Below are positions 6,354 through 24,928 of a stretch of 30,109 bases of DNA, piece by piece. The stretch is from Planctomycetota bacterium (GTDB lineage: Bacteria > Planctomycetota > Planctomycetia > Pirellulales > UBA1268): NCBI GenBank assembly GCA_046075145.1, contig JBJTPO010000204.1, positions 1 to 30,109 on the forward strand, read 5' to 3'. The position numbers were made by a program, and so were the translations under genes. The notes under the pieces were generated by a model, which saw nothing but the letters and a program-made list of their open reading frames with translations, was not told where the DNA came from and searched no databases. Every line of letters starts with the position of its first letter. Positions within the stretch are counted from its first letter, which is position 1.

Positions 6354-7375
6354 ACGACCGTGAGTTCGTCACCTACTGCTACCAGCGGATCCTGGGCCGG
6401 GAACCCGACGTCCGCGGCCTACACCATTACATCGTCGCCTTGAGCGACCGGGCACTGTCGCGGCAGCAGCTGATGCTCGACTTCCTCGAGAGCCAGGAGT
6501 TTCGCCAGCGGCAGGGGTATCCGCCGGCCGCGGCCGCCCCCCTGCCATCAGCCGAGTTCGTGCCGGCCGGCCACTACTACTCCACGATCCCGTCGGCCGA
6601 TGATCGGCGGCGGGCGCTCGCCAACTTCCAGGCCCGGCCGACTGACCTGCCTGGCATCGATCTGCACAGCGAGCGGCAGTGGGCGCTCTTGGAGGAACTC
6701 CGGCCCCTGCTGGAGTCGGGCGGTCTCACCGATGAGCCAACCGGTGGGCGGCGGTACGGCTTCACCAACCCCTCCTTCGGCCCTGGCGACGCGCTCGTCT
6801 TGCAGGCCCTGATGCGGCACCTACGGCCGCGGCGGATCGTGGAGGTGGGCTCCGGCCACAGTTCGGCCGTGATGCTCGACGTGGATGAGTTCCACCTCGG
6901 CCGGAGCGTCGACTTCACGTTCCTCGAGCCCTATCCCGACCTGCTCAAGAGCCTGATGAAGCCGGGCGACCCGACCTGGGCGATCCACCCGCAGATCGCG
7001 CAGGAGGCTGATCTGGAGCCGTTTCGTCAGCTCGCAGCCAATGACATCCTGTTCATCGACTCGACCCACGTGCTCAAGGCCGGCAGCGACGTGGCCCGCC
7101 TGCTGTTCGACGTGCTGCCGGTCCTGGCGCCGGGCGTCGTGATCCACGTCCACGACATCTTCTGGCCGTTCGAGTATCCCTCGACCTGGCTCGACGAGGG
7201 GCGGGCCTGGAACGAGGCCTATGCCCTGCGGGCGTTCCTGCAATACAACCGCTGCTTTTCGATCATGCTGTTCGCCAACTACCTGGTGCATCGGGACCGC
7301 AGCTGGTTCGAGCGACACGCGCCGACCGTGTTGCGGAACTCCGGCGGGAGCATTTGGCTCCGCCGCGACGCCTGA
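6350..7375 (+). CDS. DUF4214-like domain + class I SAM methyltransferase (Methyltransf_24-like)
   Basis: N-terminal FVTYCYQRILGREPD..GLHHY...LSRQQLMLDFLESQEF (DUF4214 pattern); VEVGSGHSS, LFIDSTH, VIHVHDIFWPFEYP, WNEAY. ATGA overlap fixes the start at 6350. Confidence 0.88.
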   Translation: MNDREFVTYCYQRILGREPDVRGLHHYIVALSDRALSRQQLMLDFLESQEFRQRQGYPPAAAAPLPSAEFVPAGHYYSTIPSADDRRRALANFQARPTDLPGIDLHSERQWALLEELRPLLESGGLTDEPTGGRRYGFTNPSFGPGDALVLQALMRHLRPRRIVEVGSGHSSAVMLDVDEFHLGRSVDFTFLEPYPDLLKSLMKPGDPTWAIHPQIAQEADLEPFRQLAANDILFIDSTHVLKAGSDVARLLFDVLPVLAPGVVIHVHDIFWPFEYPSTWLDEGRAWNEAYALRAFLQYNRCFSIMLFANYLVHRDRSWFERHAPTVLRNSGGSIWLRRDA

Positions 7376-7444
7376 CGCCGAATCCCGGGTGGCCGCGTCG
7401 ACCGCTGGGGTGGCGCGGTGCCACGGACGCTTGCCGGCCCGCAC

Positions 7445-7474
7445 TTGGCCGTTCGTGGCTGCCGAAACTATCCT
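7445..7474 (+). promoter_or_regulatory. Possible sigma70 promoter TTGGCC-N18-TATCCT
   Basis: Consensus match by eye in the intergenic region, ~30 nt upstream of ATG 7507. Confidence 0.35.
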
Positions 7475-7506
7475 GCCAGTCGCGACGGAACGGCCACCAC
7501 ACTCCC

Positions 7507-9831: not shown

Positions 9832-10567
9832 ATCCGGCAGCTCGGACCAGCCCCTGCAGGGCCCGCAGGTTCGGCGCCCACCAGTTCGAGTAGTCCCCGT
9901 TCAGTTCATTGCCCGGGAAGAACTCACACAGGAGCAAGTCGCCCGCCCCGGGCACCTCCATCGCTTCGGTCTCGATCACGACCACCTCGCGGGTCAACGA
10001 GGCCACCTTGTGCAGTGCCGCCAACGGATTCTGCATGTGATACAGCACGCCGAGGAACAACACCACGTCGAACGTGCCGATCGTCCGCGGGTCAGCGAGC
10101 ATGAAGTCCTGAACGACTGCCTCTGCCCGGCTGCCCAGCGCCCGCCGGGCAAGATCGAAGCGTCGCTTGCCCGGCAATCCGGCCTGATCGAGCCTCCAGC
10201 GTAGGCACTCGGTTCGGTACGGAGGCGTTGGCGACACGCCTTGGGCCGCACACTCGGCCAGATAATCTTCGGTCAAGCAGGTCTCCAGTTCCCATACCTG
10301 CAGATCCAAGCTCACGACGCGGGCCGCGCCGCGGCGTTCCGCCTCGAAGGAATAGAACCCGTCGAAGGCACCGATATCCAGGACACTCTTGCCGCTGAGC
10401 GATGGGAGCCGCAGGGCATCGAGTTCCTTGGCCAACGTCGGGGCGCTCTTTTGCCCCTTGGTGACGACGCCATGACCAAGGTCGATCGAGTGGAACCAGA
10501 CCTCGCTCTCGGCGGCCGCCGCCAATTCCTGTGGATTCCCGATATCGATCGATTCGACGTTCTTCAT
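9710..10567 (-). CDS. Class I SAM-dependent methyltransferase (DUF1698/CmoB-like fold)
   Basis: WFHSIDLG, VLDIGAFDGFYSFEAERRGA, FDVVLFLGVLYH, NWWAPN. ATG 10567 is preferred over the long upstream extension. Confidence 0.88.
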   Translation of the reverse strand: MKNVESIDIGNPQELAAAAESEVWFHSIDLGHGVVTKGQKSAPTLAKELDALRLPSLSGKSVLDIGAFDGFYSFEAERRGAARVVSLDLQVWELETCLTEDYLAECAAQGVSPTPPYRTECLRWRLDQAGLPGKRRFDLARRALGSRAEAVVQDFMLADPRTIGTFDVVLFLGVLYHMQNPLAALHKVASLTREVVVIETEAMEVPGAGDLLLCEFFPGNELNGDYSNWWAPNLRALQGLVRAAGFKGVEVVQGPPSMSGIPAGSPPVRYRAMVHAWKERGASSP

Positions 10568-10616
10568 GACCGTTCTCTCGAAGCCTGCTCGTTCTTCCGG
10601 GCGAAGAATACCGTAA

Positions 10617-11348
10617 CTAGCCCGGCGAATACATTTGTAGCCCGACGCCGCGCCGACGACCCAGCCGCCGCCACCACGGACGCTGGGTGGCCCGTTCCAA
10701 GTCGAGCCCAAGGGATCGGATCTCAGGCCGTAGCGCCAGGAACGTGCTGAACAGCCGCTCCATGATGAAGGGAACGTACGGGGCGTCGATCTCGCGGTCG
10801 GCCCGCGACCAGGCGAGTGTGCGGTCGGCCGCGTCGAGCCCCTCCATGATCCGACGATACACCGGTTCGCAAAAGGCCATGTAGTCGTCCCAGAACCGGC
10901 GCGTGCCAGCCCAATAGTTGCAGAACAGGATCTGCTCGCTGGGCTGCTCGAGCGTCGCCAGATCGACGGCGATCCCGACGGCGTCGAGGAGCCGCTGGGC
11001 CAGGCCCGTGATCCCGGGATGGTGAATCTCGGCCTGCTGCCAGATGCCGGCGAACGGCCGCGGCTCAACCCGATGCGGATGGACGAACCATACGTCGTGG
11101 CCCGGATGGCGCCCGATGAACTCGACGAAAGCTCGGCCAGCGAGGCCGGTCTTGGTGCCGAACTTCCACGACAAAAAGCCCGTCACATCCCCCGCGCCGC
11201 AGCGGCCAGCGAGCCACTCCGTGCGGAACACGTGATACTCCCGCCACTCGGGTCGCGGGTTCGCCCGGTTGTCGTAGGGGATGAAGGCGCGGTCGAGGGC
11301 CGACCGTTGGGCGTCGGCGTAGAAGATTTGGTGGATCCGAACGGCCAT
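10617..11348 (-). CDS. Uncharacterised glycan-locus protein (possibly glycosyltransferase-like)
   Basis: Globular-looking 243-aa ORF (HQIFY, PEWREY, GFLSWKF, FCNYW, PFIMERLFS), 8 bp downstream of the preceding minus-strand gene. Confidence 0.7.
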   Translation of the reverse strand: MAVRIHQIFYADAQRSALDRAFIPYDNRANPRPEWREYHVFRTEWLAGRCGAGDVTGFLSWKFGTKTGLAGRAFVEFIGRHPGHDVWFVHPHRVEPRPFAGIWQQAEIHHPGITGLAQRLLDAVGIAVDLATLEQPSEQILFCNYWAGTRRFWDDYMAFCEPVYRRIMEGLDAADRTLAWSRADREIDAPYVPFIMERLFSTFLALRPEIRSLGLDLERATQRPWWRRLGRRRGVGLQMYSPG

Positions 11349-11356
11349 GGGCTGTC

Positions 11357-12211
11357 TCAGGTCGGCTGCAGGGCCACGATCACCTGGAGCGGATCGTGCC
11401 CGGTCCACTCGACCTGGACGATGCGCCAGTCGGGGGCCAGGCGTTGGAGGTGATCGAGCGACATTGACGTGTCGCCATAGCTGATATCGCCCGCTGCCGT
11501 GGGCGTCCTTCGGTGGGGCAAAAAGGCGAACCCCTGTTCCCGATGCCGCGCTTCGTAGTCTTCGAATCCGCTGCCGCCCCACTGCCTCCAGTACTCGATG
11601 GGCCGGATGGTCAGACAAAGCAGACCGTCTTCCCGTACGACCTGTCGCAGGGTCGCCAGAACCGTCCGCGCCGTCTGCTCGCTAAGATGCGTGAATACAC
11701 TGAACGAAAAAATGAGGTCGAATGGCCTGCGGAACGGTAGGGTCGCCGGGACCTCCTCACTCACCGCCAACGGGCACCTCAAGCCGCTCTCCTGGCAGAG
11801 CCGAATCGATTCACCCCAGGAGTCGACGCCATGCAAGGCCGGCTCGGGAACCGCATGGAGGAGCAGCCGCAGAAGCCTGCCCCAGCCACAGCCGAAGTCG
11901 AGAATGCTCGCCGAGTCGATGCCTCGCCGGGCATGTCTTCCCCACAGGCCCAGCAGCGTTCGCACAAAGGCCAGCGACTGAATCATCAGCGGCATGCCAT
12001 GGTTGCCGGTCCAGTTACGCTGGACCTGCTCCGCGGGCATCGACGGCAGGCGGGCCGCCAGCGCCGGCCACTGTTCAGGCACGCCGATCAGCAGTTCGCC
12101 GAACACCTCGAGTGGAATGGTTCGCATCGCCTCGGAAATCGTCAGATTTCGATCATCGGCCAGGAGGCCGTCGATCCGCGCCAGTTCCGTCTCGAAAAGT
12201 TCGAGCATCAT
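11357..12211 (-). CDS. Class I SAM-dependent methyltransferase
   Basis: ILDFGCGWGRLLR (motif I), FDLIFSFSVFTHL. Start overlaps the stop of the upstream giant gene (ATGA/TGATG; ATG 12211 or 12208). Confidence 0.9.
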   Translation of the reverse strand: MMLELFETELARIDGLLADDRNLTISEAMRTIPLEVFGELLIGVPEQWPALAARLPSMPAEQVQRNWTGNHGMPLMIQSLAFVRTLLGLWGRHARRGIDSASILDFGCGWGRLLRLLLHAVPEPALHGVDSWGESIRLCQESGLRCPLAVSEEVPATLPFRRPFDLIFSFSVFTHLSEQTARTVLATLRQVVREDGLLCLTIRPIEYWRQWGGSGFEDYEARHREQGFAFLPHRRTPTAAGDISYGDTSMSLDHLQRLAPDWRIVQVEWTGHDPLQVIVALQPT

Positions 12212-15200
12212 GCAACTCGCAATGAGATTGAGGGGATGTCGCGAGGGGTCGCGGCGCGAGGCCCACGACAAAGGATCTTGACGAGCCGGGTGAGGTCGGC
12301 CTCCTGGCGGGCGGCGATCGTCGCGTGCTGGCCCCGCAACTCCTCCGCGGCCGGCGGCGCAGCGAGCATCGTGCGGATGGCGGTGGCGATGCTCTCGAGG
12401 TCGAAGGGGTCGCAGGGGATCGCCGCGGCACCGCAGACCTCGGGTACCGCCGTGTTGGCGGCGACGACGCTCGGGGTGCCGTGGGCCATGGCCTCGAGCG
12501 GCGGATACCCGAAGCCCTCGTTCAACGACGGGTAGAGCAGGAACCGGGCCTCGCGGTAGAGGTATTCGAGCCGCTCCGGCGGCAGATATGGCAGCGTGAC
12601 GAAGCGGCCTGGATTGGCGAGCGACACCAGGCCCAGGTCGTCCATCCGGCCGATCCCGGTGAACAGGAGCTTCAGCCACGGATGCTCCGCCGCGAAGCGG
12701 GGGTCGGAGCAGAGCCGATCGAAGGCAACCGCGGCGGTGACGGCGTTCTTCTCGATGCGTCCGGCGTTGATCATCAGGGCGAACTCGTCGCGGCCCGGTT
12801 CGACGCCCGGCAGGGCGAACGGCTCGGGGGCCGGCCGATCCTTGGCGGGTGAAAACAGCACCTCGAGAGGCCGGTGGCAGCCGACGCTGGCTCGGATCGT
12901 GGCGGCTGAGTACTCGGACACCGTCACCAGCCTGTCGATCGCGGGGCTGGCACAGATGCCTTCGTACATGGTCCGCAGCTGCCCAGCGATCCCCGCCTGT
13001 CGGGCTACCTCCTGCCGCACCTGAGGCGGGCTCATCGCCTCCTCGGTTCGGCAGCCGCTCGCCCGGCGCACCTCGAGCACCCGCTCCCACTCCTCCGCCA
13101 GCACCTGGTCGCGGATGTCGTGCAGCGTGCCGACGACATAGGTCGGGCCGGCCGTGAAGCCGAGTTCGCCACCGACCCGCTTCTGATACTCGTAGCCCGT
13201 GTAGACGACGATCGCCGGGGCGAAGAAGGAGCTGAACAGGCCCGCGTTGACGAGCCCCGTGATCTCGGCGAACGACTTCACCGCCACGATGTTGACGGCA
13301 TGCTCGCGGCAGGCCTGCCACACCCAGCCGTCGATGAACAAGGCCGGGTCGAGCGCGGCCCAGAGCTGCACGTCGCCCCGTGCGGCCGTCGCGGCGACGA
13401 GCGCCTTGAACACGGCCTTGCCGTACTCACCCCCGCCGTGAAAGCCCGGCTGGCAGAAGAGCAGGTCCACGAGCACGTGCGTCCGGCCGTCGGCGGTGAG
13501 CGGCTCGATCTCGGCGGTGTCGGGCCCGAGCCACTTCCCCCGACTGGCCGCCTCGTGCCGCTCGAGCCGTCTCCGGCAGAGCGCGGCCGTCTCGATCACC
13601 GCGTCGTAGCCGAGTGCGAGCTTGCGCCGCTCGGGCACCTTCGCCGTGGACACGCCCTCCTCGTGGGCGATCACGATCCGTGGGTCGTAGACGGCCTGGT
13701 GGCCGGTCAGAAGGCAGTCCACCGCCAGCAGGAACTCCTCCCCGTAGAGAAACGTCCGCTCGTCGAAGGCCCGCGCGCGCTCCGCCGTGAACACGGGCGA
13801 GAAGACGTAGGCGGCGCCCTGGAGGATCGGCTCATGGAGCGTCGTCGCCGCGGGGCTGCGGCGACCCAGGCGGCGGAACTCGGCCGGCCCGCCCTCCTCC
13901 CAGGTGACCCGCTGCCGCTCGTAGAGATCACCCAGGGCCGCCCACTCGCCGGCGTCGTAGACCTCGTCGTTCCACGGGTTCTCGTGACGTCCGTCGGGCG
14001 TGACGATGTCGGGCCCGAGCACCGACCAGGCCCGCTCCGCGAACGAGGCCAGGCACTTGGCGACGAACTCGGGATCGCCCACGACCGTGTCGTTGTTGAT
14101 CACGGCGATGAAGCCGGCCCCGAGAACGTCCCGGGCATGCGTGTAGCCGACGTTGTTGCCCTTGGCGAAGCCCAGGTTTTCGCCGGTGAACAGGAGCGTC
14201 ACGTCGGGCAGCGCGGCGAACAGCGTCCGGGTCTTTTCCACCGCGGCCGGCTCGGAACCGTTGTCGACCACCACGATGCGCACCCGACGGCCACCGGTCG
14301 GGAGCCGCCGCAGCGAGGCGACGCAGCGGGCCGTGACCTCGGGCTGGTTGAACTGGAGGACGACGAACGCGAAGGGATCATCGGCCCCCGGTCGGGCGGC
14401 GCGCGCCGCGGCGGCGACAGCCGCCGGGGAGTCGAGCGGGAAGACTTCCTGACCGATCGTGCACCCGGGCCGGCCCTGGTCGAGCGCGAGGCGATGGCCC
14501 GCGGCCGCCAGCCCCGCGATCGCCGCCACCTGGTTGAGCAGAAAGCCGTGCGACGCCTCGGGCACGCCGCCGCCGAACAGCGTGCGCAGCCGGGCCCGGC
14601 GGTGTTCGATCGCGGCGGTGTGCCGGTTCGGTACGAGTGGGGCCGAAACCGTCCGGACGGACGCCGCCACCGGAGCCCGCCCCCCGGCGGGCCGGGGCAG
14701 GAGCGCCGCCGCGGTCTCCTCCAGCACCCGATAGCCGTGCCGCATGTCGGGCTCGAGGTGGGCGCCTTCGGCCCACTCGTTCCAGGCGTTGATGAACACG
14801 AGTTGCCGCTCGGGCGGCTGCTCCCGCTGCATCTGCTCCACCACACCCCGCAACCAGCGGCCGTAGAGTTCGGGTGAGGAGTTGACCCAGGCCGTGGCCC
14901 GCTCCATCCGCCGGGCCGTGTTGTCCCAGCCGGGCATCACGCCGCGGTACAGCGGGTAGTCGGCCGGAGGCCGCGCGAGCGAATGACAGATCGCTTCGCG
15001 GTAGTCGAGCACGCCGCCGCGGAAGCGGCGATCCATGCCGGCAAGGCCGGTATCCCGCAGGTTCGTGGCGGGAATCTGCAGCGGCGGAAACTGGATCGCC
15101 GCGTCGAAGCCGTAGCTTCGCGGGTCGGCCTTGTCGAAGGAGTGCACGGCGGCCAGATGCAGCCCCGGCAGGCCCTCCCGCTCGGCAAGTCGCCGCCACC

Positions 15201-16551
15201 GGTCCGCGGTCGCCGCCGGTTCGGCCAGCAGGCCCGGCCGGTAGACGGCCAGGAGCGGCCGCCCGTCGACGGTGATATATCGCTCGTCGCGGAGGGCCGG
15301 CAGCAACTCCCGGAGAAACCGTTCGTCGCCGTCGGCCGAGTGCCGCTGCTCCAGGAGCACCTCGCGGTCGAGGCCGTCCCAGGTCCGCGTCCAATTCTCG
15401 TTGGCCCAGCATAGGCAGAAGGGAAAGTCAGGGCGGCCGCTCGCCAGGAGCTGCTCGACCGGCTTCTCGAGGATCCGCCGGCCGTCGAACCAGTAGTGGT
15501 AGAAGCAGAAGCCGTGGATGCCGTGCCGGCGGGCCATCTCGGCCTGCCGCTCGAGCACGCCCTCCTCGGCCAGGTCGTAGTAGCCGAGGTCGGGGTGCGG
15601 CACGTGCGGCTGCTGGTGGCCGGCGAACATCGGCCGGGCCCGCCGCACGTTCGTCCACTCGGTGAAGCCCTCGCCCCACCAGGCGTCGTTCTCCGGCACG
15701 CGGTGGAACTGGGGCAGGTACATCGCGATCGCCCGCACGTGGCCGCGGTTGGCCGGACCGGCCATGACCGGAGCCGCGGCCGGGCCCGCCGCCGCCACGC
15801 CGCCGGGTGCATAGGCGACCGCCGCCGCGGCCCGCGCGTCTGCGCCGGCCGGCTCGTATTCGGTGACCAGGAAGTGCACGAACGGATTGACGTCGGCCGC
15901 GAGGGGTACGGGCCGGGCGGCCACATAGGCGGCCAGCGAGAAGCCGGGCGAAGGCTCGCGACGCTCCCGCCAGCCCGAGCCGAGGAAGTGCGACAGTGGC
16001 TCGAGACCAGCCAGCGCCACGTCCGGGTTGCGGTCAAGGTACCAGCCGACGTCAAACAGCGGATGCGGGATCCGGCCCTCGCGCCAGCCCGCGGTGAGGT
16101 AGTGCTCGAGGGGTTCGAGCCCGGCCGCTGCGACGTCGGCATGGGCCGCCAGATAGCCGGCGGCATCGAAGGCCGGATGCGGCGAGCGGCCCTCCCGCCA
16201 GCCTTGCGTGAGGTAATGCAGCAGCGGTTCGCAGCCTGAGGCCGTCACGTCGGGATAGCGGACGGCGTACCACGACGGGTCGAAGAGCGGATGCGGCTGG
16301 CGGCCCTCCCGCCAGCCGTGCGCGACATAGTGGGTGAGCGGATCGAGCCCGGCGGCCCGCACGTCGGGGTGGCAGCCGAGATACCAGGTGGCATCGAACA
16401 GCGGGCTAGGCGAGTGCCCCTTCCGCCAGCCACGGCGGCGGTAATAGGCCCACGGCCGCCAACGGATGCGCGGGCGACTCGCGCCATACCGGGTGGCGTA
16501 CCAGCGTGCGGCGAAGTAGGGACGCAGGTCGGGCCGCATCGGATCCGGCAT
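12208..16551 (-). CDS. Multidomain glycosyltransferase: 38-aa repeats - WbsX/GH99-like - GT2 - GT4 (paralog of the 2-5932 core)
   Basis: AIAMYLPQFHRVPENDAWWGEGFTEWTNV, NAWNEWAEG, IVVVDNGS, INNDT, YGEE, HGGGEYGK, EGFGYPPLE. Start is ATG 16551 (or 16539). Confidence 0.92.
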   Translation of the reverse strand: MPDPMRPDLRPYFAARWYATRYGASRPRIRWRPWAYYRRRGWRKGHSPSPLFDATWYLGCHPDVRAAGLDPLTHYVAHGWREGRQPHPLFDPSWYAVRYPDVTASGCEPLLHYLTQGWREGRSPHPAFDAAGYLAAHADVAAAGLEPLEHYLTAGWREGRIPHPLFDVGWYLDRNPDVALAGLEPLSHFLGSGWRERREPSPGFSLAAYVAARPVPLAADVNPFVHFLVTEYEPAGADARAAAAVAYAPGGVAAAGPAAAPVMAGPANRGHVRAIAMYLPQFHRVPENDAWWGEGFTEWTNVRRARPMFAGHQQPHVPHPDLGYYDLAEEGVLERQAEMARRHGIHGFCFYHYWFDGRRILEKPVEQLLASGRPDFPFCLCWANENWTRTWDGLDREVLLEQRHSADGDERFLRELLPALRDERYITVDGRPLLAVYRPGLLAEPAATADRWRRLAEREGLPGLHLAAVHSFDKADPRSYGFDAAIQFPPLQIPATNLRDTGLAGMDRRFRGGVLDYREAICHSLARPPADYPLYRGVMPGWDNTARRMERATAWVNSSPELYGRWLRGVVEQMQREQPPERQLVFINAWNEWAEGAHLEPDMRHGYRVLEETAAALLPRPAGGRAPVAASVRTVSAPLVPNRHTAAIEHRRARLRTLFGGGVPEASHGFLLNQVAAIAGLAAAGHRLALDQGRPGCTIGQEVFPLDSPAAVAAAARAARPGADDPFAFVVLQFNQPEVTARCVASLRRLPTGGRRVRIVVVDNGSEPAAVEKTRTLFAALPDVTLLFTGENLGFAKGNNVGYTHARDVLGAGFIAVINNDTVVGDPEFVAKCLASFAERAWSVLGPDIVTPDGRHENPWNDEVYDAGEWAALGDLYERQRVTWEEGGPAEFRRLGRRSPAATTLHEPILQGAAYVFSPVFTAERARAFDERTFLYGEEFLLAVDCLLTGHQAVYDPRIVIAHEEGVSTAKVPERRKLALGYDAVIETAALCRRRLERHEAASRGKWLGPDTAEIEPLTADGRTHVLVDLLFCQPGFHGGGEYGKAVFKALVAATAARGDVQLWAALDPALFIDGWVWQACREHAVNIVAVKSFAEITGLVNAGLFSSFFAPAIVVYTGYEYQKRVGGELGFTAGPTYVVGTLHDIRDQVLAEEWERVLEVRRASGCRTEEAMSPPQVRQEVARQAGIAGQLRTMYEGICASPAIDRLVTVSEYSAATIRASVGCHRPLEVLFSPAKDRPAPEPFALPGVEPGRDEFALMINAGRIEKNAVTAAVAFDRLCSDPRFAAEHPWLKLLFTGIGRMDDLGLVSLANPGRFVTLPYLPPERLEYLYREARFLLYPSLNEGFGYPPLEAMAHGTPSVVAANTAVPEVCGAAAIPCDPFDLESIATAIRTMLAAPPAAEELRGQHATIAARQEADLTRLVKILCRGPRAATPRDIPSISLRVA
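15850..16401 (-). repeat. Tandem 114-bp (38-aa) repeats, consensus LFDxxWYLxxxPDVxxAGLxPLxHYxxxGWREGRxPHP
   Basis: Four clear units starting at 16401, 16287, 16173 and 16059, a degenerate fifth from 15945, and a degenerate unit before 16401. Confidence 0.9.
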
Positions 16552-16727: not shown

Positions 16728-16756
16728 TTGACCGTCCGCATGACCGGTGGAAGAAT
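16728..16756 (+). promoter_or_regulatory. Possible sigma70 promoter TTGACC-N17-AAGAAT with extended -10 TG
   Basis: Upstream of a GGAG Shine-Dalgarno (16776) and ATG 16789. Confidence 0.45.
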
Positions 16757-16788
16757 CCTGCGTCTCTTCGGCACCGGAGCCCGCCGCC

Positions 16789-18312
16789 ATGACGGCATCA
16801 CCGACCGCCGGCCACCCGCCGGTCCTCGTCATCGGCGGGATGCACCGCTCCGGCACGTCACTGACTGCGTCGGTCATCGCGGCCGCAGGCATCCACCTCG
16901 GCGACGACCTGATGGCCGCCGGCGCCGGCAACCCGCGCGGGCACTTCGAAGACCTCGCGTTCTATCACCTGCACCAGCGCATCCTGGCCGCCAACGGCCT
17001 GTCGCTGGAAGGGTTCACCTGCCAGGAAACCATCGACGTACCGCCAGCCGCACGGATCGAGGCGAACGAGCTCGTCGCCCGCCGCCGCGGAGCGGGCCGG
17101 CCCTGGGGCTGGAAGGATCCGCGGACGGTGTTGCTGCTCGACTTTTGGGCCGACCTGCTCCCCGAGGCCAGATGGCTGTTCGTGGTGCGGCCTCCCGAGC
17201 AGGTGGTCGACTCGCTGCTCCGCCGCGGTGACACGGCCTTCATCGTGAACCCGCGGCACGCGATCGACGTCTGGGTCGCCTACAATCGCCGGATCCTGGA
17301 GTTCGTGCACCGACACCAGCAGCGGTCGGTCGTCGTGGACCTCGAACAGGTGACCGCCGACCCCGCATCGCTCGTGGCGACCGTGTCCAACCTGATGGGC
17401 ACGGTGCTCTCGCCACCCCCCTCGACCTACGAGGAGGGGCTGCTCGTGTCGGGCCTGCCACCGCATCGCGCGGGGCTGGTGCGGACCGTGCGGCCGGAGG
17501 CGCAGGAACTGCACGCGCAGCTGCGGCGGCTGGCCGGTCTTGAATCGGCCGTGGACGGCGGGCCGTTCAGGCAGACGGAGACCGCCGATGCCGCGCTCGC
17601 CGAGTGGACCATCAGCTGCCGCACCGGGGCAGCCGCCGGACAACTCGCGGCCCGCGAAGCCGACGCGCGACAGGCCGCCGAGCGGCTCGCCGCCGAACTC
17701 GAGACCGAGCGGGCCGCCCGGTCGGAACTCGCCGCCCAGACCGAGACCCTGACGGCCGACCGGTCGGCGATCGTGACCGCCCTCGAGACCGAGCGGGCCG
17801 CCCAGGGCCAGTTGGCAGCCACGCTCGAGACCGAGCAGGCCGCCCACCTCCACGCCCGCGACCGCGCGGCCGAACTCGAACGCGACGTCGCCCGCTGCGA
17901 GCAGGCGATTGTGACGCTCGAGGCACGCTGGAAAGCCGCCACCGCGGACGCGGACGCCGCACTCGACGCTCTGGCGACGCACCGCGCGGCGGAGGCCGAA
18001 GCTCGACTGGCGATCGAGCGGCAGCTGGCCGAGGCCCTGGCCCGGAGCGAGGCGGCGGAACGCACGGCGGCGCGGCTCGAGACCGCGCTCGCGGACCGCG
18101 ACCTCGCGATCCCGCGGCTCGAGGCGGCGCACGCCGAGGCCAGGGCGCGGGCCGAGCAACTCGACGCCGAGGCCACGGCCGCCGCCGGTGAGCGACACGA
18201 CCTCGTCGCTCAACTGGAGGCGGAGCGGGCGATCCACGAGGCGCTGCGGCAGGACATGAACGGCCGGATCGAGGCGGCCGTGACCTGCCGCGACCGGCAC
18301 CGTCCGCGCTAG
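16789..18312 (+). CDS. Sulfotransferase-family domain + C-terminal coiled coil (~507 aa)
   Basis: GGMHRSGTS (5'-phosphosulfate-binding loop), NPRGHFED, WGWKDPRT, VRPPEQVVDS (3'-phosphate motif R-x7-S), then ~220 aa of A/E/L/R heptads. Confidence 0.9.
   Translation: MTASPTAGHPPVLVIGGMHRSGTSLTASVIAAAGIHLGDDLMAAGAGNPRGHFEDLAFYHLHQRILAANGLSLEGFTCQETIDVPPAARIEANELVARRRGAGRPWGWKDPRTVLLLDFWADLLPEARWLFVVRPPEQVVDSLLRRGDTAFIVNPRHAIDVWVAYNRRILEFVHRHQQRSVVVDLEQVTADPASLVATVSNLMGTVLSPPPSTYEEGLLVSGLPPHRAGLVRTVRPEAQELHAQLRRLAGLESAVDGGPFRQTETADAALAEWTISCRTGAAAGQLAAREADARQAAERLAAELETERAARSELAAQTETLTADRSAIVTALETERAAQGQLAATLETEQAAHLHARDRAAELERDVARCEQAIVTLEARWKAATADADAALDALATHRAAEAEARLAIERQLAEALARSEAAERTAARLETALADRDLAIPRLEAAHAEARARAEQLDAEATAAAGERHDLVAQLEAERAIHEALRQDMNGRIEAAVTCRDRHRPR
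17698..17844 (+). repeat. Three 21-bp direct repeats (ctcgagaccgagcgggccgcc, LETERAA) in the coiled coil
   Basis: Copies at 17698, 17782 and 17824 (one mismatch in the third); spacings are 84 and 42 bp, i.e. 28 and 14 codons. Confidence 0.85.
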
Positions 18313-19049
18313 GACTCCTCGAGAGCGTCGCCACGGCCGCGGATCGGCTCGTCCCGCACGATCGCCCCATGGGAAAGCTCGATCACGCGATTGCACTCCC
18401 GGGCGATCAGCTCCGCCGAGTGGGAGGCGATCACGAGGATCCCACTGTGCGACACCAGTTCCCGGATCCGCTGCTCGGCCTGCTGCCGGAACTCGGCGTC
18501 GCCGACCGAGAGCCATTCGTCCATCAGCAGGATGTCGGCCCGCACGCTCGTCGTGATCGCGAAGGCCAGCCGCATCAGCATGCCGGTCGAGTAGGTGTGG
18601 ACCGGCATGTGCAGGTAGTCGCCCAGGCCGCTGAACTCGGCGATGTCGGGAGTGAGCCGGCGGATCGTGCGGCGGTTGAGCCCGAGCACCAGTCCGCGGA
18701 TCATGATGTTCTCGTAGCCGGTGGCCTCCCGTTCGATCCCCAGCATCGGATTGACGAGGCTGGCGATCGAGCCTTCATGGCGATACCGCCCCCGGGTCGG
18801 CGGGTAGACACAGGCGAGCGTCTGCAGGAGCGTCGATTTTCCGGAGCCGTTGTGGCCGACCACCCCGAGCCGGGCGCCGTCGCGAAGCTCGAGCGTGACG
18901 TCGCGGAGCGCCTCGACGACCGTGATCCCGGTGCCCCTGCCGATCCGACCCCCGGTGGCTGCGGCGGTGAGCGTTTTTTTCAACGACTCCCCGTCGGCCC
19001 CGAAGACGGGGTAGTCCACCGACACGGCGTCGAGCGCGATCAGGGTCAT
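18309..19049 (-). CDS. wzt: Polysaccharide ABC transporter ATP-binding subunit, no C-terminal carbohydrate-binding module
   Basis: Walker A GHNGSGKST, signature YSTGM, Walker B ILLMDEW, H-loop ASHS; only 246 aa; follows wzm. Confidence 0.93.
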   Translation of the reverse strand: MTLIALDAVSVDYPVFGADGESLKKTLTAAATGGRIGRGTGITVVEALRDVTLELRDGARLGVVGHNGSGKSTLLQTLACVYPPTRGRYRHEGSIASLVNPMLGIEREATGYENIMIRGLVLGLNRRTIRRLTPDIAEFSGLGDYLHMPVHTYSTGMLMRLAFAITTSVRADILLMDEWLSVGDAEFRQQAEQRIRELVSHSGILVIASHSAELIARECNRVIELSHGAIVRDEPIRGRGDALEES

Positions 19050-19053
19050 CGGG

Positions 19054-19899
19054 TCACACCCAATACACGACCTGGCGACGCCAGCGGGCGTAGAGAACCA
19101 CCGCCACGGCGACGTTCAAGGCGGTGAAGTACAACAGGAAGCGGACGGTTCCCGGTGCCGCATACCCGCCCAACAGCGGCAGCCGCAGGACGTCGAGCAA
19201 CTGGGCGAGCGGGTTGTAGAGAATGAATCGGGACCGCTCCGGCAGCCTCTCTGGGATCCAGAACACAGGTGTCAAGAACATCAGCAGTTGAAGCGAACTG
19301 GCCACGATGTTGGGCACGTCGCGAAACCGGGCCGAGAGCAGGCCGAGCGTGATCGACAGGGCATGAAGATTGACGACCACCACGACGAGGCCGGGCAGCA
19401 CGAGCAGCATCTGCGGGCTCCAGGTGAGCCCCGCCCAGATCGCGACCGGCAGGTAGAGGACCAGGTGATGGGCCAGGAAAAACAGATGCTTGGCCAGGCT
19501 TCGCCAGACGAACACGCTGCGCGGCACGGCTCCCTGCTTGAGGTAGGGGGCCGACGAGATGAACACCTGGCAGCCGTCGTTGATCGAGGTGCTGAGGAAG
19601 TTCCAGAAGATGATGCCCAGCGCCAGGTGCGGATAGAACCGGGCCAGCGGCACGTCGAACAGCGCCGCGTACAGCGGGCCCATCCCCAACAGCATCGCTC
19701 CCATGCTGAGCGTGATCCACCAGGGGCCCAGGAGCGAGCGGCGGTAGCGGAGGACGATGTCGTACCAGGCCAGCGTGCCCCAGAGGTCGATCTGCAGCGT
19801 GCCGCTCCACCAGTCGGACCAGCCGCTCCCGACGGGCTGCAGGTGTTGCGCCGGCTCCGGCAGCCGCGCTGTGGCGACGGTGGCAGGCGGGGCGGGCAC
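19054..19899 (-). CDS. wzm: Polysaccharide ABC transporter permease
   Basis: DIVLRYRRSLLGPWWITL, RFRDVPNIV, FLTPVFW, YNPLAQLLDVLRLPLLG; six TM segments; GTG start. Confidence 0.92.
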   Translation of the reverse strand: MPAPPATVATARLPEPAQHLQPVGSGWSDWWSGTLQIDLWGTLAWYDIVLRYRRSLLGPWWITLSMGAMLLGMGPLYAALFDVPLARFYPHLALGIIFWNFLSTSINDGCQVFISSAPYLKQGAVPRSVFVWRSLAKHLFFLAHHLVLYLPVAIWAGLTWSPQMLLVLPGLVVVVVNLHALSITLGLLSARFRDVPNIVASSLQLLMFLTPVFWIPERLPERSRFILYNPLAQLLDVLRLPLLGGYAAPGTVRFLLYFTALNVAVAVVLYARWRRQVVYWV

Positions 19900-20003: not shown

Positions 20004-21005
20004 ATGAGTGACCTGTCCGCGGCGGGCGAATCAACCCGCGTAACCGTCGTGATCGTCAACTTCAACGGCGGAGCCCACGTGGTCCGCTGCCTGGAGTGCC
20101 TCGCGGCCCAGACCGTGCCGCCCGCGCGGATCGTGCTTGTCGACAACGCCAGTGGCGACGGCTCCTTGGCGGCCTGCCGGGATCTGGTCGCGGCGCGCCC
20201 CGGCCTCGCCGGACGGACGACGATCGCAGCGCTCGAGGCGAACCTCGGCTTCGCGGCGGGCTCCAACCGCGGCCTCGCCCTGGCGGAGACGGAGTTCGTC
20301 GCGCTGCTCAATCCCGACGCCTTCCCGGAGCCCGGCTGGCTGGAGGCGCTCGTGGCCGCCGCCGCCGCCCATCCCGCATGCACCGCGTTCGGGTCGCGGC
20401 AGATGCTCGCCGGCCAGCCGGGCGTGATCGACGGAATCGGCGACCGCTGGCACGTGAGCGGCCTGGCCTGGCGGGAAGGGCACGGGCGACCGATGGAACC
20501 GGCCGACCTCGTCGCCCGCGAGATCTTCTCGCCATGCGCCGCGGCTGCCCTCTACCGCCGTGACGCCGTGCTGGCGGCCGGCGGGTTCGACGAGGACTAC
20601 TTCTGCTTCGGTGAGGACGTCGATCTCGGCTTCCGGCTGCGGATCGCCGGCCACACCGCCCGCTCCGTGCCGGAGGCGGTGGTCGAGCACGTGGGCGGCG
20701 CGAGCTCCGACGGCCGGCTGGCGACCTACCTCGGCCACCGCAACCTGCTCTGGACCCTGGTCAAAAACACGCCTGGGCCGATTTTGCCGGCCGCTTTGCT
20801 CGCGCATCTTTTCCAATCTATCCTTTTGGGACTGGTGCTCGGCTGCCGGGGCCGGGGACGTGCCTTCGCCCGCGCCAAGTGGGATGCCGTGGTGGGGCTG
20901 GGCGGATGCTGGCGGAAGCGACGGGGTGTGCAGGCCGGGCGGCGAACATCGACATGGCGACTTCTCAGGAGCATCGATCTGGCGCCCATGCGCCGGGGCC
21001 GCTGA
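20004..21005 (+). CDS. GT2 family glycosyltransferase (WbbL/GT2-like)
   Basis: VVIVNFNG, LVDNASGDG, NLGFAAGSN, LLNPD, FDEDYFCFGEDVDLGFR, RNLLW. Confidence 0.92.
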   Translation: MSDLSAAGESTRVTVVIVNFNGGAHVVRCLECLAAQTVPPARIVLVDNASGDGSLAACRDLVAARPGLAGRTTIAALEANLGFAAGSNRGLALAETEFVALLNPDAFPEPGWLEALVAAAAAHPACTAFGSRQMLAGQPGVIDGIGDRWHVSGLAWREGHGRPMEPADLVAREIFSPCAAAALYRRDAVLAAGGFDEDYFCFGEDVDLGFRLRIAGHTARSVPEAVVEHVGGASSDGRLATYLGHRNLLWTLVKNTPGPILPAALLAHLFQSILLGLVLGCRGRGRAFARAKWDAVVGLGGCWRKRRGVQAGRRTSTWRLLRSIDLAPMRRGR

Positions 21006-21040
21006 CGCACCCGAAAGACGACGCCGGCTCGCTCGCCCCG

Positions 21041-22024
21041 GTGAGCGTGGTGATCGTCAATCACGACGCCGGCCGACTCCTGGCCGACTGCCTCGCGGCG
21101 GCGCTGGCGCAGGCCCGTCAGGTGATCCTGGTCGACAACGCCTCGCAGCCGGTCCCCTTCGAGGCGGTGGCGGCCCGCTTCGCCACCCATCCACGGCTGA
21201 CGATCCTCCGCTCCCGCGTGAACACCGGCTTCGCCACGGGCTGCAATCAGGGTGCGGCCCGCGCCGATCAATCCACGATTTTGTTTCTGAACCCCGATTG
21301 CATCCTCGGCCCCGGCTCACTGGCGACGCTCTCCCGCGCCCTGGTCACCGGCGACCGGGTCGGCATGGTGGGGGGCCTGCTCACCGATGCCGGTGGCAGG
21401 GAGCAGGGGGGCGCTCGCCGCAGCATCCCGACGCCATGGCGATCCTTCGTGCGCGGCTTCGGACTGGGCAGGCTGAGCTGGCTGGCCCCGCGCTGGTTGT
21501 CCGACTTCTACCTCCACCGCGAGCCGCTGCCGACGCAAGCCATCGACGTCGAGGCGGTCTCGGGTGCGCTCACCATGGTCAGCCGCGAGGCCTTCGATCA
21601 GGCCGGGCCGTGGGACGAGGGCTTCTTCCTTCACTGCGAGGATCTCGATCTCTGCCTGCGGTTTCGCCAGGCAGGCTGGCGGATCCTGTTCGTCCCCGAC
21701 GCGCCCGCCGTACATCACCGCGGGATGTGCGGCCGATCGCGGCCGCTGGCCGTCGAGTGGCACAAGCACCAGGGAATGATCCGCTTCTATCGCAAGCACT
21801 TCCGTCACGCCTACCCGGCGGGGCTGTTCGGGCTGGTAGTCGCGGGCGTCTGGCTCCGATTCGGCTTGGTGGCCGCCCGGCAGACCGTACACCGCTCGCT
21901 CGCGGCGGTCGCCCGGATCGCCTCACGTCCCGACCGCGACGCGGGACCGGAAGCGGATGCGGTACGGGTGGTCGATGCCGTGCGAGTGGCCCGGGCCGCT
22001 CCCGCGCCGACGCTTCCCTCGTGA
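21041..22024 (+). CDS. GT2 family glycosyltransferase (start uncertain: GTG 21041 or ATG 20954)
   Basis: VSVVIVNHD, LVDNAS, NTGFATGCNQG, FLNPD, WDEGFFLHCEDLDLC. Confidence 0.88.
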   Translation: MSVVIVNHDAGRLLADCLAAALAQARQVILVDNASQPVPFEAVAARFATHPRLTILRSRVNTGFATGCNQGAARADQSTILFLNPDCILGPGSLATLSRALVTGDRVGMVGGLLTDAGGREQGGARRSIPTPWRSFVRGFGLGRLSWLAPRWLSDFYLHREPLPTQAIDVEAVSGALTMVSREAFDQAGPWDEGFFLHCEDLDLCLRFRQAGWRILFVPDAPAVHHRGMCGRSRPLAVEWHKHQGMIRFYRKHFRHAYPAGLFGLVVAGVWLRFGLVAARQTVHRSLAAVARIASRPDRDAGPEADAVRVVDAVRVARAAPAPTLPS

Positions 22025-22043
22025 CCGCGGGCCTGCGTCACCC

Positions 22044-22967
22044 ATGAGCGAGGCGGCTCTGGTCGGCGTGATCGGTGCGGAGAGCCTCGTGGGGCGGCCG
22101 CTCGTGCCGCTCCTGTCGCAGACCGCGGGCGGCGTGCTCGCCTGCTCCCGCTCGGCCGCCGTGGCCGCCGAACCATTCCGGGGCGGAGTCCACCGACACC
22201 GAACGGCGGCGCCGCTGCCGGTCGGATCGGCGGGCGTTTCCCGCTGGATCACGCTCTGCCCGCTGTGGGCGGTGCCGGCTCATCTCCGGTGGCTCGAGCA
22301 GCTCGGCGCCGAGCACGTCGTGGCCCTCTCGTCGATGAGTGGCGTCACCAAGGCGGACTCGTCCGACTCGGCCGAGCGGGCGCTCGCAACCCGGCTCACG
22401 GCGGCCGAGGACCGCCTCGTCACGTGGGCTGCCGATCGCGGCATCGGCCTGACGCTGCTCGTGCCAACCATGATCTATGACGGGCGGAACGACGCGAACG
22501 TGGCGGCCATCGCCGATTGGGTCCGCCGCTTCGGCTGGTTCCCCCTCTGCGGCCCGGCGCTGGGTCGGCGGCAACCCGTGCATGCCGAAGACGTGGCCGC
22601 GGCCTGCCTGGCAGCCAGCGACCGGCGACCGCCCCGCACGCGCTACACGCTTTCCGGCGGCGAGGCACTCCCCTTTCGGGACTTGGTCGTGCGGGTCTGC
22701 CGGGCCCACGGCCTCCGGCCGCGAACCGTCCACCTCACGCCCTGGATCTGGCACGTCGCGGCCAGGTTCGCCCGGGGGCTGGGCCTCGCCGGCGGCGCCA
22801 GCGGCGGCATGGGCCGCCGAATGAACGAGGATCTCTCCTGCGACCACGCCGCCGCCGCGGCCGACCTCGACTTCCGTCCCCGGCCGTTCGATCCCGCCGC
22901 CCATACAATCGCGAGCGATGATGGACTAGTCACGACGCGGCCGGACCGACGAAGGGACAACCCATGA
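22044..22967 (+). CDS. Atypical NAD-dependent epimerase/dehydratase-like (SDR) protein
   Basis: Rossmann start VGVIGAESLVG, LLVPTMIYDG, RQPVHAEDVA, YTLSGGE; no YxxxK visible. Confidence 0.8.
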   Translation: MSEAALVGVIGAESLVGRPLVPLLSQTAGGVLACSRSAAVAAEPFRGGVHRHRTAAPLPVGSAGVSRWITLCPLWAVPAHLRWLEQLGAEHVVALSSMSGVTKADSSDSAERALATRLTAAEDRLVTWAADRGIGLTLLVPTMIYDGRNDANVAAIADWVRRFGWFPLCGPALGRRQPVHAEDVAAACLAASDRRPPRTRYTLSGGEALPFRDLVVRVCRAHGLRPRTVHLTPWIWHVAARFARGLGLAGGASGGMGRRMNEDLSCDHAAAAADLDFRPRPFDPAAHTIASDDGLVTTRPDRRRDNP

Positions 22968-24928
22968 GCGACCGTCCAAGGTTCCTGCCTGCCCAACGGT
23001 CGCCGGCAGATTCGCCCGCGGCCCAGCCGTGGGCGTGGCTCGTGACCACGCTGCTCTTGGCGGTGGTACTCGTCGGCGTACACGCCGTGATCGACCCGGA
23101 CGCCTACGACGTGTCGCAACTGCCGCGGCTGCTGGCCGTGATGGCGGGTCTCCTCGTGGCCGCCCCGGCGACGCTCCTCGTGCCGGCGCTCGCCCGGCGG
23201 CTCGACTGGCGGCCTCTCGGCGACCCGCTGGTGGTCGCGGCGGCCGCGTACCTGGCCGCCTGCTGCCTGTCGCTCGTGGTCGCGACCAACGTGTCGGCCG
23301 GCTTCACCGACGTGTTCCGCACGCTCGGCGGTTTTCTCGTGCTCTGCCTCTGCCTGCTCGTGCTGCCGCTCGATCCGGGCTGGCGTCGCCGGCTCTTGGA
23401 AATGGCGGTGGTCGCCACCCTGGCGGCGGTGACCGTGGCCGCCTGGGAGCTCGCCCCGCTCATGGCCGCCGGCACCCTCGGCCGCCGCGATCTCGAGACC
23501 GCGTTCCTGGACGGGATGATGTCGAACGTCAACCTGTTCGCCGGCTATCTGCTGCTGATCGTGCCCTGGTGCCTGTGCGCAGCGGCGGAGTTTCGCGGGG
23601 CCTGGCGGGGCGTGGCCGCGGCGACCGGCCTGGCCGCGGTCGCCACGCTGGCGGTGCTGCAGTCGCGGGCGGACTGGCTGGCCGGGGGGGCCGCGGCGGT
23701 CGGCGTCGCGATCGTGATCCTCCGCCACCGGCAGGCGCTCGGCGTGCCTGCTGGCCTGCGCCGCCCGCTGATCGCGGCGGTGGCATTCCTGCCGCTGGTG
23801 GCCTTGGTCGGCGGCGGGCTCTCGCTCACCGACACGCCCGTCGGCCGGGCCATCGACCGCCTCGTCATCTCCCGACCCCATCAGGCCGGGACTCCGAGCG
23901 ACGGCGGCCGGACGATGGTCTGGGGCATCGCCGCCGAGATGATCGCCGAGCATCCGATCACGGGCGTCGGCGCCGGCAATTTCACGCTGCGGATGCACGA
24001 CTATTTCGGCTCGGACAGGCTGGGGGAAACGCTCGATTTCACGAACCTCTCGAGCGATAACTGGCTCCAGCCCCACAACGACTTCCTTTGGGTGTTCGCC
24101 GAGAAGGGGCTGCCGGGGATCGTGAGCTTCGGGGCGGTGTTCATCCTGGCATGGCTGGCGGTCCAACGCGTGCTCGCCGGCTCACCACCGACTTCCGACG
24201 CCCGGCTCGCGGTGGCGTCGCTGACGGCCTTGGTCGCACACCTCGTGTTCTCGGCGTTCGACTTTCCCCTCGACCGCGTCAGCCACCAGCTGATGGTGGC
24301 CGTGCACCTGGCGGTGCTCGTGCTCCTCAAGCGGGCCGCAGAGCCTTCACCCGGTGAGCCCGTGCGGCTGCCGGGCTGGCTCGTCCTGCCGCCGGTCGTC
24401 GCCGCGACGGCGCTGGGCTGTGTCTACGCCTGGTCGGCCCTCACGCAGGAACACGCGGTGCTTGACACCCGCCGGGCCCAGCAGGCCGGTGACTGGGAGG
24501 CGATGCGAGAGGCCGCCCGCCGGGCCACCACCCCCTGGAAGACGCTGGACTACCTGGCCGTTCCCGTCGCCTTCCTCGAGGGCGAGGCAGAGCGGAATCT
24601 CGGCAACCTCGAGGCCGCGACGGCCTGCTTCGAGCGGGCGATCGCCGCCAACCCGTCGCGGCTCTACACCCTCCAGAACCTGGGCGCGGCCTACGCCCAG
24701 GGGGGCCGGCTCGACGATGCCGTCGATGTCTTCGCGATCGCCGCCGACCGCTACCCCGCCCGCCTCGAACTGCGGCACAACCTCGCCCTGACGCTCGTCA
24801 ACGCAGAGCGGTTTCCCGAGGCGATCGCGGTGATTGAGGACGTGCCCGAGCCGCTCCGAACCGAGGGCATGCGGGAGGCGCTGGCCTTCGCCCGCGAGCG
24901 GGTGGCGGCCGGTCCAGCCGCCGAGTAG
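22964..24928 (+). CDS. O-antigen ligase/oligosaccharyltransferase-family membrane protein with C-terminal TPRs
   Basis: QSRADWLA, GRTMVWGIAAEMIAEHPITGVGAGNF, PHNDFLWVFAEKGLPG (Wzy_C pattern); TPR-like AATACFERAIAANP..NLGAAYAQGGRLDDA..NLALTL. Confidence 0.88.
   Translation: MSDRPRFLPAQRSPADSPAAQPWAWLVTTLLLAVVLVGVHAVIDPDAYDVSQLPRLLAVMAGLLVAAPATLLVPALARRLDWRPLGDPLVVAAAAYLAACCLSLVVATNVSAGFTDVFRTLGGFLVLCLCLLVLPLDPGWRRRLLEMAVVATLAAVTVAAWELAPLMAAGTLGRRDLETAFLDGMMSNVNLFAGYLLLIVPWCLCAAAEFRGAWRGVAAATGLAAVATLAVLQSRADWLAGGAAAVGVAIVILRHRQALGVPAGLRRPLIAAVAFLPLVALVGGGLSLTDTPVGRAIDRLVISRPHQAGTPSDGGRTMVWGIAAEMIAEHPITGVGAGNFTLRMHDYFGSDRLGETLDFTNLSSDNWLQPHNDFLWVFAEKGLPGIVSFGAVFILAWLAVQRVLAGSPPTSDARLAVASLTALVAHLVFSAFDFPLDRVSHQLMVAVHLAVLVLLKRAAEPSPGEPVRLPGWLVLPPVVAATALGCVYAWSALTQEHAVLDTRRAQQAGDWEAMREAARRATTPWKTLDYLAVPVAFLEGEAERNLGNLEAATACFERAIAANPSRLYTLQNLGAAYAQGGRLDDAVDVFAIAADRYPARLELRHNLALTLVNAERFPEAIAVIEDVPEPLRTEGMREALAFARERVAAGPAAE

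Follow-up and report, generated by a model that had tools for sequence, protein, structure and literature searches.

Results

The ST-CC gene and its promoter

The gene described here, ST-CC (for sulfotransferase-coiled-coil), lies at positions 16789-18312 of the forward strand of a stretch of planctomycete DNA of 30,109 bp (hereafter the window), which is a complete contig (C204) of a metagenome-assembled genome (MAG) of the Pirellulales consisting of 758 contigs (3.34 Mb, 79.6% complete, about 72% GC). Its predicted product of 507 aa (P0004) is composed of a sulfotransferase (ST) head, a long coiled-coil stalk and a conserved C-terminal motif, and the gene is located between that of a large glycan polymerase and the wzm/wzt genes of an ABC exporter. 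This organization raises the possibility that ST-CC might cap, with sulfate, the chains made by the polymerase and set their length.

The public gene call starts at the ATG at 16789, and the open reading frame (ORF; 16747/16789-18312) has a coding-type GC content at third codon positions (GC3 = 0.89), the same GC3 analysis revealing that the antisense ORFs lying over the gene are artefacts of the high GC content. A sigma-70-type promoter (16728-16756, forward strand) precedes it, with a -35 element TTGACC (16728-16733), a 17-nt spacer and an extended -10 element TGGAAGAAT (16748-16756), and a GGAG ribosome-binding site (16776-16779) is found 9 nt before the ATG. Since six orthologous intergenic regions, taken from loci with ST-CC proteins of 42-80% identity, all keep TTGAC, the 17-nt spacer and TG.AA.AA unchanged, ST-CC appears to have its own promoter of the sigma-70 type; judging from these sequences, it is a real gene with a conserved promoter of its own. 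The position of this promoter and of the GGAG at 16776 places the upstream GTG (16747) outside the transcript, so that it would not be used. At the other end, ST-CC and wzt are convergent and their stop codons overlap on the palindrome CTAG (18309-18312), with no space for a terminator between the two genes; orthologous loci also retain a convergent overlap (4 nt in L008 and 12 nt in L005). The close homologs of ST-CC belong to MAGs of Pirellulales and other Planctomycetota.

The head is predicted to be a PAPS-dependent sulfotransferase

Pfam (PF13469), the AlphaFold2 (AF2) model and Foldseek all point to a sulfotransferase domain at residues 12-250 (16822-17538). Three motifs characterize it: the 5'-phosphosulfate-binding loop GMHRSGTS (residues 17-24; 16837-16860), which aligns with GMPRSGTT of the tyrosylprotein sulfotransferases (TPST); WGWKDPRT (residues 106-113; 17104-17127), aligning with the NKDPF lysine motif of TPST; and the 3'-phosphate-binding motif R134-x7-S142 (17188-17214), aligning with VRHPYSVIES of the CurM ST domain and IRDGRAVVHS of TPST. 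The phmmer alignments also bring the P-loop, the KDP lysine and the R...S motif onto those of TPST. The preliminary description of this DNA had stated that both motifs binding 3'-phosphoadenosine-5'-phosphosulfate (PAPS) are intact, and indeed they are, like WGWKDPRT, present and invariant across 60 homologs: in this alignment, where identity goes down to 23%, G17, M18, H19, R20, S21, T23, S24, K109, R134 and S142 do not vary, and R20, K109, R134 and S142 align with the PAPS-binding residues of TPST and of the CurM ST. E54 is invariant too, and H52 and D55 nearly so.

With 29.6 bits, the match to PF13469 (Sulfotransfer_3) exceeds the curated cut-off of 27 bits (E 1e-6, residues 25-217 of P0001), and the homologs of ST-CC also carry this domain. 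The AF2 model has a mean pLDDT of 84, mostly above 90 over residues 12-250, and its 30 best Foldseek matches in the PDB are all sulfotransferases, including TPST2 (3ap3, E 5e-8), the OLS ST (4gox), TPST1, the CurM ST (4gbm), Stf1, heparan 3-O-sulfotransferases (3-OST), NDST and Stf0, with a probability of 1.00 for TPST2, OLS ST, CurM ST, Stf1 and 3-OST. A profile of the family compared with structures retrieved the CurM ST (E 1.5e-7) and the OLS ST (E 2.9e-7), both alignments spanning the 3'-phosphate-binding motif. The genome harbors two APS (adenosine-5'-phosphosulfate) kinase genes and thus can make PAPS. On the basis of sequence and model, the head is a predicted PAPS-type sulfotransferase. 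It shares the fold and the two nucleotide-binding motifs with TPST1/2 and with the CurM and OLS domains, but the identity is only 15-19% and the acceptors of these enzymes (protein tyrosine for TPST, beta-hydroxyacyl-ACP for CurM and OLS) differ from the glycan proposed below for ST-CC; unlike ST-CC, none of them has a coiled-coil stalk or is encoded in a glycan locus.

A coiled-coil stalk that changes length in steps of two heptads

In the AF2 model, residues 262-498 (237 residues; 17572-18282) form a single continuous helix, and the 3.5-residue periodicity assigns its part from about residue 290 to residue 498 (17656-18282) to a heptad coiled coil. The hydrophobic periodicity at 3.5 residues exceeded that of 500 out of 500 shuffled sequences, both in this free coil (209 aa) and in the coil (residues 193-402 of the truncated protein, 210 aa) of the fused paralog encoded at the beginning of the window, hereafter giant A; moreover, the heptad register of the coil shifts only once, between two long blocks within which it stays constant. 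A periodicity beyond all shuffles and a constant register exclude a charged single alpha-helix of the ER/K type. The coil had been placed at 17630-18290, with about 220 aa against about 210 aa in the fused copy, which agrees well with the helix and heptad limits given here. At the textbook rise of an alpha-helix, 0.148 nm per residue, the stalk would measure about 31 nm (heptad part) or about 35 nm (whole helix).

The coil contains a tandem repeat of 42 nt (14 aa, that is, two heptads) in 2.8 copies (17686-17803, detected with TRF) and is followed by the C-terminal motif (residues 468-494; 18190-18270; consensus ..L.AQLEAER.IHE.LRQDMTGRIE). The comparison of 20 full-length homologs (50-82% identity) revealed that the head (residues 1-290) and the C-terminal block are conserved, the latter with eleven invariant residues (R469, L472, Q475, A478, E479, R480, I482, E484, R487, D489 and R493), whereas both the sequence and the length of the intervening coil are hypervariable. 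Over 52 homologs, the distance separating WGWK from the C-terminal motif varies between 232 and 461 residues. In the 28 homologs with at least 65% identity, which are related and do not represent 28 independent events, it is 330, 358, 372, 386 or 400 residues, or else 354, 368 or 382, with one exception (394), that is, two phase classes 4 residues apart, each stepping by 14. In the alignment of the 20 homologs, separate indels of 14, 28 and 42 residues are found at different positions of the coil, and one coil (P0005) shows a clear tandem duplication of 28 residues. Changes in length that preserve the heptads between two conserved ends fit a ruler or spacer and would not be predicted for a mere oligomerization tag. 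We also considered the idea that the C-terminal motif might be a docking tag carried by other heads as well; it found no support, as a search with this region among proteins of 278-888 aa retrieved 27 proteins, all of them ST-CC proteins with PF13469.

The proposed partnership with polymerase B

On the other side of a 237-bp spacer, the reverse strand encodes polymerase B (12208-16551; 1447 aa), in which Pfam matches and the AF2 model recognize an N-terminal repeat domain (here Brep), WbsX and glycosyltransferase domains of families 2 and 4 (GT2, GT4). Polymerase B is 55% identical to giant A over 1196 aa and lacks the ST-coil module, in agreement with the early statement that ST-CC is divergent to the giant paralog without this module. 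The divergent pair formed by the Brep-WbsX-GT2-GT4 gene and ST-CC was found in 10 lineages (the window, L005/L023, L008, L009, L011, L024, L025, L031, L104 and L021), with ST identities of 42-80%. In two of them (L009 and L011) the pair is kept with no wzm/wzt within 10 kb, which indicates that ST-CC is linked to the polymerase itself rather than only to the locus. The co-occurrence with the polymerase expected in the preliminary description is therefore observed head to head, also where the exporter genes are not adjacent, and comparative sequence analysis indicates that ST-CC is functionally tied to polymerase B.

Brep (polymerase B residues 45-245; about 15817-16419, reverse strand) is built of 38-aa alpha-repeats encoded by a 114-nt repeat. 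Its AF2 model is a confident alpha-repeat fold (pLDDT >90 over residues 45-245); no match to this fold was found in the PDB, and the AlphaFold database (AFDB) gave many (E down to 4e-19), including GT2, GT1 and RgpF glycosyltransferases but also nucleotidases and hemolysin-type calcium-binding proteins. Brep is thus a widespread, uncharacterized module. In a cyanobacterial locus (L055) it follows the coil, within an open frame interrupted by a run of Ns. Its presence on many unrelated proteins, and after a coil in L055, argues against a dedicated substitute for ST-CC, and the idea of Brep as a dedicated dock for ST-CC is speculative. A prediction of the complex between polymerase B residues 1-270 and ST-CC residues 410-507 scored 0.00, a value obtained without controls that speaks neither for nor against binding.

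Giant A and the split/fused pair

Giant A (2-5932, forward strand; Pfam, BLASTP), whose 5' end is cut by the end of the contig, is arranged in the order ST tail, coil, SNSWKLTRPLR and basic segment, WbsX, GT2, GT4 and methyltransferase. Its N-terminus shares 46% identity over 215 aa with ST-CC (BLASTP, E 1e-46), and the shared pattern WGWKDPRT..FVVR.P..VVDSL.RRGD.AF..NP that had been noticed by eye is borne out by this alignment. Full-length orthologs of giant A have 2053-2083 aa with PF13469 at the N-terminus. In the same genome, the reverse complement of bases 1-290 of contig C443 (minus strand) ends with MSRSAQ..VIAGMHRSGTS..EGFVAEA, about 10 residues before the first codon of the window, and this contig end is very probably the missing N-terminus. 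Just upstream of it, C443 carries rmlC (dTDP-4-dehydrorhamnose 3,5-epimerase), a hint of a rhamnose-containing glycan. Another 3-kb contig (C254, bases 70-594, minus strand) encodes a third, more distant sulfotransferase paralog, with 35-37% identity, GMHRSGTS and WGFKDPR.

Because both the ST domains and the polymerase cores are paralogous, ST-CC/polymerase B and giant A represent a true split/fused ("Rosetta-stone") pair, as had been suggested. Four genomes (G000, G151, G152 and G153) harbor one free and one fused copy each, and in the maximum-likelihood tree of the ST domain the four fused copies form one clade (99/97) and the free copies another (98/95), which indicates that the duplication is old and that both formats were kept side by side. 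The fused coil ends with S.SW.LT.PLR followed by a basic, aromatic segment, whereas a charged motif of its own is found at the end of the free coil. The similarity in coil length that had been pointed out is true for this genome, and no clear covariation is seen among the four genomes with both copies: the distances from the anchor to the end of the coil (free/fused) are 372/388, 382/383 (with a run of Ns in the fused copy), 366/407 and 425/438, similar in size, with a Spearman coefficient of about 0.2 (n = 4). The run of Ns lies inside the coil-coding repeats of the giant A ortholog of G151 (L109, contig C54), where the assembly probably broke on the repeat, so that coil lengths taken from MAGs need care. 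A second "Rosetta stone" for the methyltransferase was considered and rejected, since the C-terminal methyltransferase of giant A shares only the generic SAM-fold motif with the free methyltransferases at 11357-12214 and 9710-10570 (E 0.02 and 0.005, respectively).

Distribution of the family and association with wzt

A DNA-pattern scan retrieved more than 587 relatives from Planctomycetota, Cyanobacteria, Obscuribacterales, Acidobacteriota and other phyla; in an order-level genome search, among the matches listed, those at E<=1e-20 came from the same genus only. The 80 best loci of the scan were analyzed further; many come from related cyanobacteria, so that the locus counts overstate independence. 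In these loci the ST often represents the N-terminus of proteins of 1000-2600 aa that also contain GT2, GT4 and sometimes methyltransferase domains. The preliminary description had regarded a family mostly unlinked to ABC-transporter-dependent glycan loci as evidence against its proposal; the survey does not show such a family, as wzt (E <1e-30) lies within 10 kb in 38 of the 80 loci, against about 0.6% expected per random 20-kb stretch (from the single wzt of this 3.34-Mb genome). The nearby Wzt has 414-485 aa in 30 of the 38 loci, and Wzt_C (PF14524) is present in both of the two checked (L077 and L085). Short members of the family with little or no coil (e.g., P0072) are found in unrelated contexts.

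Most of the relatives from Cyanobacteria are fusions with glycosyltransferases, encoded next to Wzt exporters of the cap-reading type, and the cyanobacterial giants share the order of giant A (ST, coil of about 195 aa, S..FWK motif and glycosyltransferases). The giant of Lyngbya sp. exhibits the order ST, coil of about 195 aa (read by eye), S.FWK motif, two beta-rich domains, GT2, GT2, GT4 and methyltransferase. The two beta-rich segments (L085:11500-12160; residues about 500-720), of about 100 aa and with a G-W-C motif each, are located between the coil and the first GT2, and such segments of the cyanobacterial fused proteins may be carbohydrate-binding domains inside a terminator-polymerase.

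The remaining genes of the window

The gene map of the window was drawn from frame-specific GC3 and Pfam matches. Downstream of giant A, the forward strand encodes a DUF4214-methyltransferase (6242-7375) and a polytopic membrane protein with no Pfam hit (ORF 7354-9831, gene from about 7500); in L008, a weak PMT_2 (GT-C) match is found at the orthologous position, and the protein may act in the same pathway as an extracytoplasmic glycosyltransferase. On the reverse strand there follow a methyltransferase (9710-10570), a protein of 242 aa with no Pfam or NCBIfam hit (10617-11345) and a further methyltransferase (11357-12214) adjacent to polymerase B. The 242-aa protein follows polymerase B in every orthologous locus, with or without a methyltransferase between them, and its look-alikes in the protein atlas include clusters in which 13% of the members have DUF4422 (WbbM-type glycosyltransferase), an observation to be taken as a lead only. 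Beyond ST-CC, wzt (18309-19049; ABC ATPase, 246 aa; PF00005, NF050108) and wzm (19054-19899; ABC-2 permease, 281 aa; PF01061) lie on the reverse strand, followed on the forward one by two GT2 genes (20004-22024), an epimerase-like gene (21957-22967) and a Wzy_C/TPR ligase-like gene (22964-24928), after which housekeeping genes are found.

Discussion

On the whole, the architecture of ST-CC and the comparative genomics reported here suggest that the protein might be a sulfate-capping chain terminator and ruler acting in trans, in the manner of WbdD; this is the best-supported reading, and we give it a probability of about one half. According to it, a long parallel coiled coil would carry a PAPS-dependent sulfotransferase at its tip, and its base would be fixed to polymerase B at the membrane by the C-terminal motif. 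The growing lipid-linked glycan would receive sulfate on its non-reducing end only after its length has become sufficient to reach the head, some 31-35 nm away; sulfation would halt elongation, and the Wzm/Wzt pump would then export the chain. ST-CC and polymerase B would thus act like WbdD and WbdA (split), and giant A like WbbB (fused).

The terminator systems known so far offer both organizations, since terminator and polymerase modules are either fused (WbbB, O7 ORF6) or separate (WbdD, O4 ORF7) (PMC11231755). WbdD of E. coli O9a and K. pneumoniae O3/O5 is a terminator that stands alone, bears a coiled-coil ruler and recruits the polymerase WbdA (PMC11231755). ST-CC is likewise a stand-alone protein, with an N-terminal enzyme of terminating type, a long coiled coil as the spacer of two functional ends, and a conserved C-terminus, and is likewise encoded with a multi-GT polymerase and wzm/wzt. 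However, the two proteins lack sequence homology, the head of ST-CC being a PAPS sulfotransferase instead of a kinase/methyltransferase; the C-terminus of ST-CC is charged, whereas that of WbdD is a membrane-binding amphipathic helix; and the Wzt of the ST-CC locus lacks a carbohydrate-binding module (CBM), the cap and the interaction being, in the case of ST-CC, proposals. As the sulfotransferase domain is the only one found, ST-CC would be an analogue of WbdD by architecture and not a member of its family. The catalytic head followed by a C-terminal coil, with each activity on a separate polypeptide, is also shared with ORF7 of K. pneumoniae O4 (PMC11231755), which differs in being a GT137 Kdo transferase with a TPR-like bundle before the coil and in being accompanied by a Wzt with a CBM. 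The order of giant A (terminator-type head, coil, GT modules) resembles instead that of WbbB (K. pneumoniae O12 / R. terrigena) and of K. pneumoniae O7 ORF6, whose heads are either a GT99 Kdo transferase or a methyltransferase-kinase, and not a sulfotransferase as in giant A and ST-CC. Orthologs of O7 ORF6 occur with and without the C-terminal GT modules (PMC11231755); ST-CC differs from WbbB and O7 ORF6 in being the unfused counterpart, with both formats in one locus and paralogous polymerase cores. The likeness to WbdD-WbdA and WbbB drawn in the preliminary description holds for architecture and genomic setting but not for the head, for the base of the coil, where no membrane anchor is recognizable, or for Wzt.

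Several points weigh against a sulfate-capping terminator. The Wzt of this locus has 246 aa (its open frame allows at most 269 aa) and no CBM, and PF14524 was sought in the genome, which is 79.6% complete, and not found, whereas in all terminator systems proven by experiment Wzt bears a CBM that reads the cap (PMC11231755). In addition, the C-terminal motif is charged and does not resemble the amphipathic membrane anchor of WbdD, and a membrane-binding element was sought in the sequence of the free ST-CC protein with no result. The PF13469 score barely exceeds the threshold (29.6 vs 27 bits), and the catalytic base is assigned as a candidate only (E54). Finally, a sulfate-capped glycan is described in no paper within the searchable literature; the same literature, which excluded the 2019 census of terminator chemistry by Mann, Kimber and Whitfield, contains no paper that brings a sulfotransferase together with Wzt and a coiled coil, nor any about sulfated O-antigens of planctomycetes.

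These points leave room for other explanations. Sulfated repeat units are known in bacterial polysaccharides, and the main rival is that ST-CC decorates the product of polymerase B with sulfate on internal residues, the coil serving just for oligomerization of the enzyme or as its scaffold on the assembly complex. An exporter without a cap-reading CBM means that nothing in the locus requires a cap, the several methyltransferase genes suggest a heavily decorated polymer, and the short, almost coil-less relatives outside glycan loci (P0072) would also fit a decorating enzyme. Nevertheless, we consider this explanation rather unlikely, since a simple oligomerization tag does not need some 210 residues, and the heptad-preserving steps in length between two conserved ends would be left unexplained. 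Moreover, in the fused paralogs and in the giants of Cyanobacteria the head sits at the end of the coil far from the glycosyltransferases, away from where the chain is made, the opposite of what an enzyme decorating the chain during polymerization would need, and most of the Wzt proteins near other members of the family (30 of 38) are long enough for a CBM.

It is less probable still, although conceivable, that ST-CC is a terminator and ruler not dedicated to polymerase B, which serves both polymerases or docks on Wzm/Wzt or on the small, conserved DUF4422-like protein and not on the N-terminal repeats of polymerase B. The overlap of the ST-CC and wzt stop codons, maintained as a convergent overlap in orthologous loci, and the protein of 233-242 aa without Pfam match that always follows polymerase B would be in agreement with this idea, as would the generic nature of Brep, found on many unrelated proteins and, in at least one locus of Cyanobacteria, behind the coil. 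On the other hand, the pairing with polymerase B survives with no wzm/wzt nearby (L009 and L011), and giant A has its own ST-coil and so does not need a second one. The sulfation of a non-glycan target, such as protein tyrosine or a lipid, with an incidental gene neighborhood, appears very improbable: the best structural matches are indeed tyrosylprotein sulfotransferases and polyketide ST domains, but the carbohydrate-acting heparan 3-O-sulfotransferases match the fold as well, the divergent pairing with the polymerase has been conserved across 10 lineages, fusions of the same ST to glycosyltransferases exist in both Planctomycetes and Cyanobacteria, and wzt is strongly enriched in the vicinity of this ST.

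A broader and more tentative reading, which we regard as possible but somewhat doubtful, joins the observations on the two formats, the repeat and the exporter. Sulfate would represent a further, unproven class of chain-terminating cap in ABC-transporter-dependent glycan assembly, with the capping enzyme present, in this lineage of Pirellulales, both fused and free in one locus. The free form would dock via a private C-terminal motif, and the ruler might be retuned by slippage of the 14-residue repeat. Chain length would then be set without a cap-reading module in the exporter, uncoupling the "ruler" from the "export checkpoint".

The locus might serve as a test case, as it offers a natural comparison of fused and split formats with paralogous polymerases and a set of naturally occurring coil lengths 14 residues apart, and as an exporter without a cap reader lets ruler function and export gating be separated. 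To our knowledge, coiled-coil ruler terminators are established for three cap chemistries only (methyl, methyl-phosphate and Kdo), and almost exclusively in Enterobacteria. The sulfotransferase form, which is common among Cyanobacteria and Planctomycetes, would, if true, introduce a new cap chemistry, and this in phyla that are dominant in the environment and have poorly known surface glycans.

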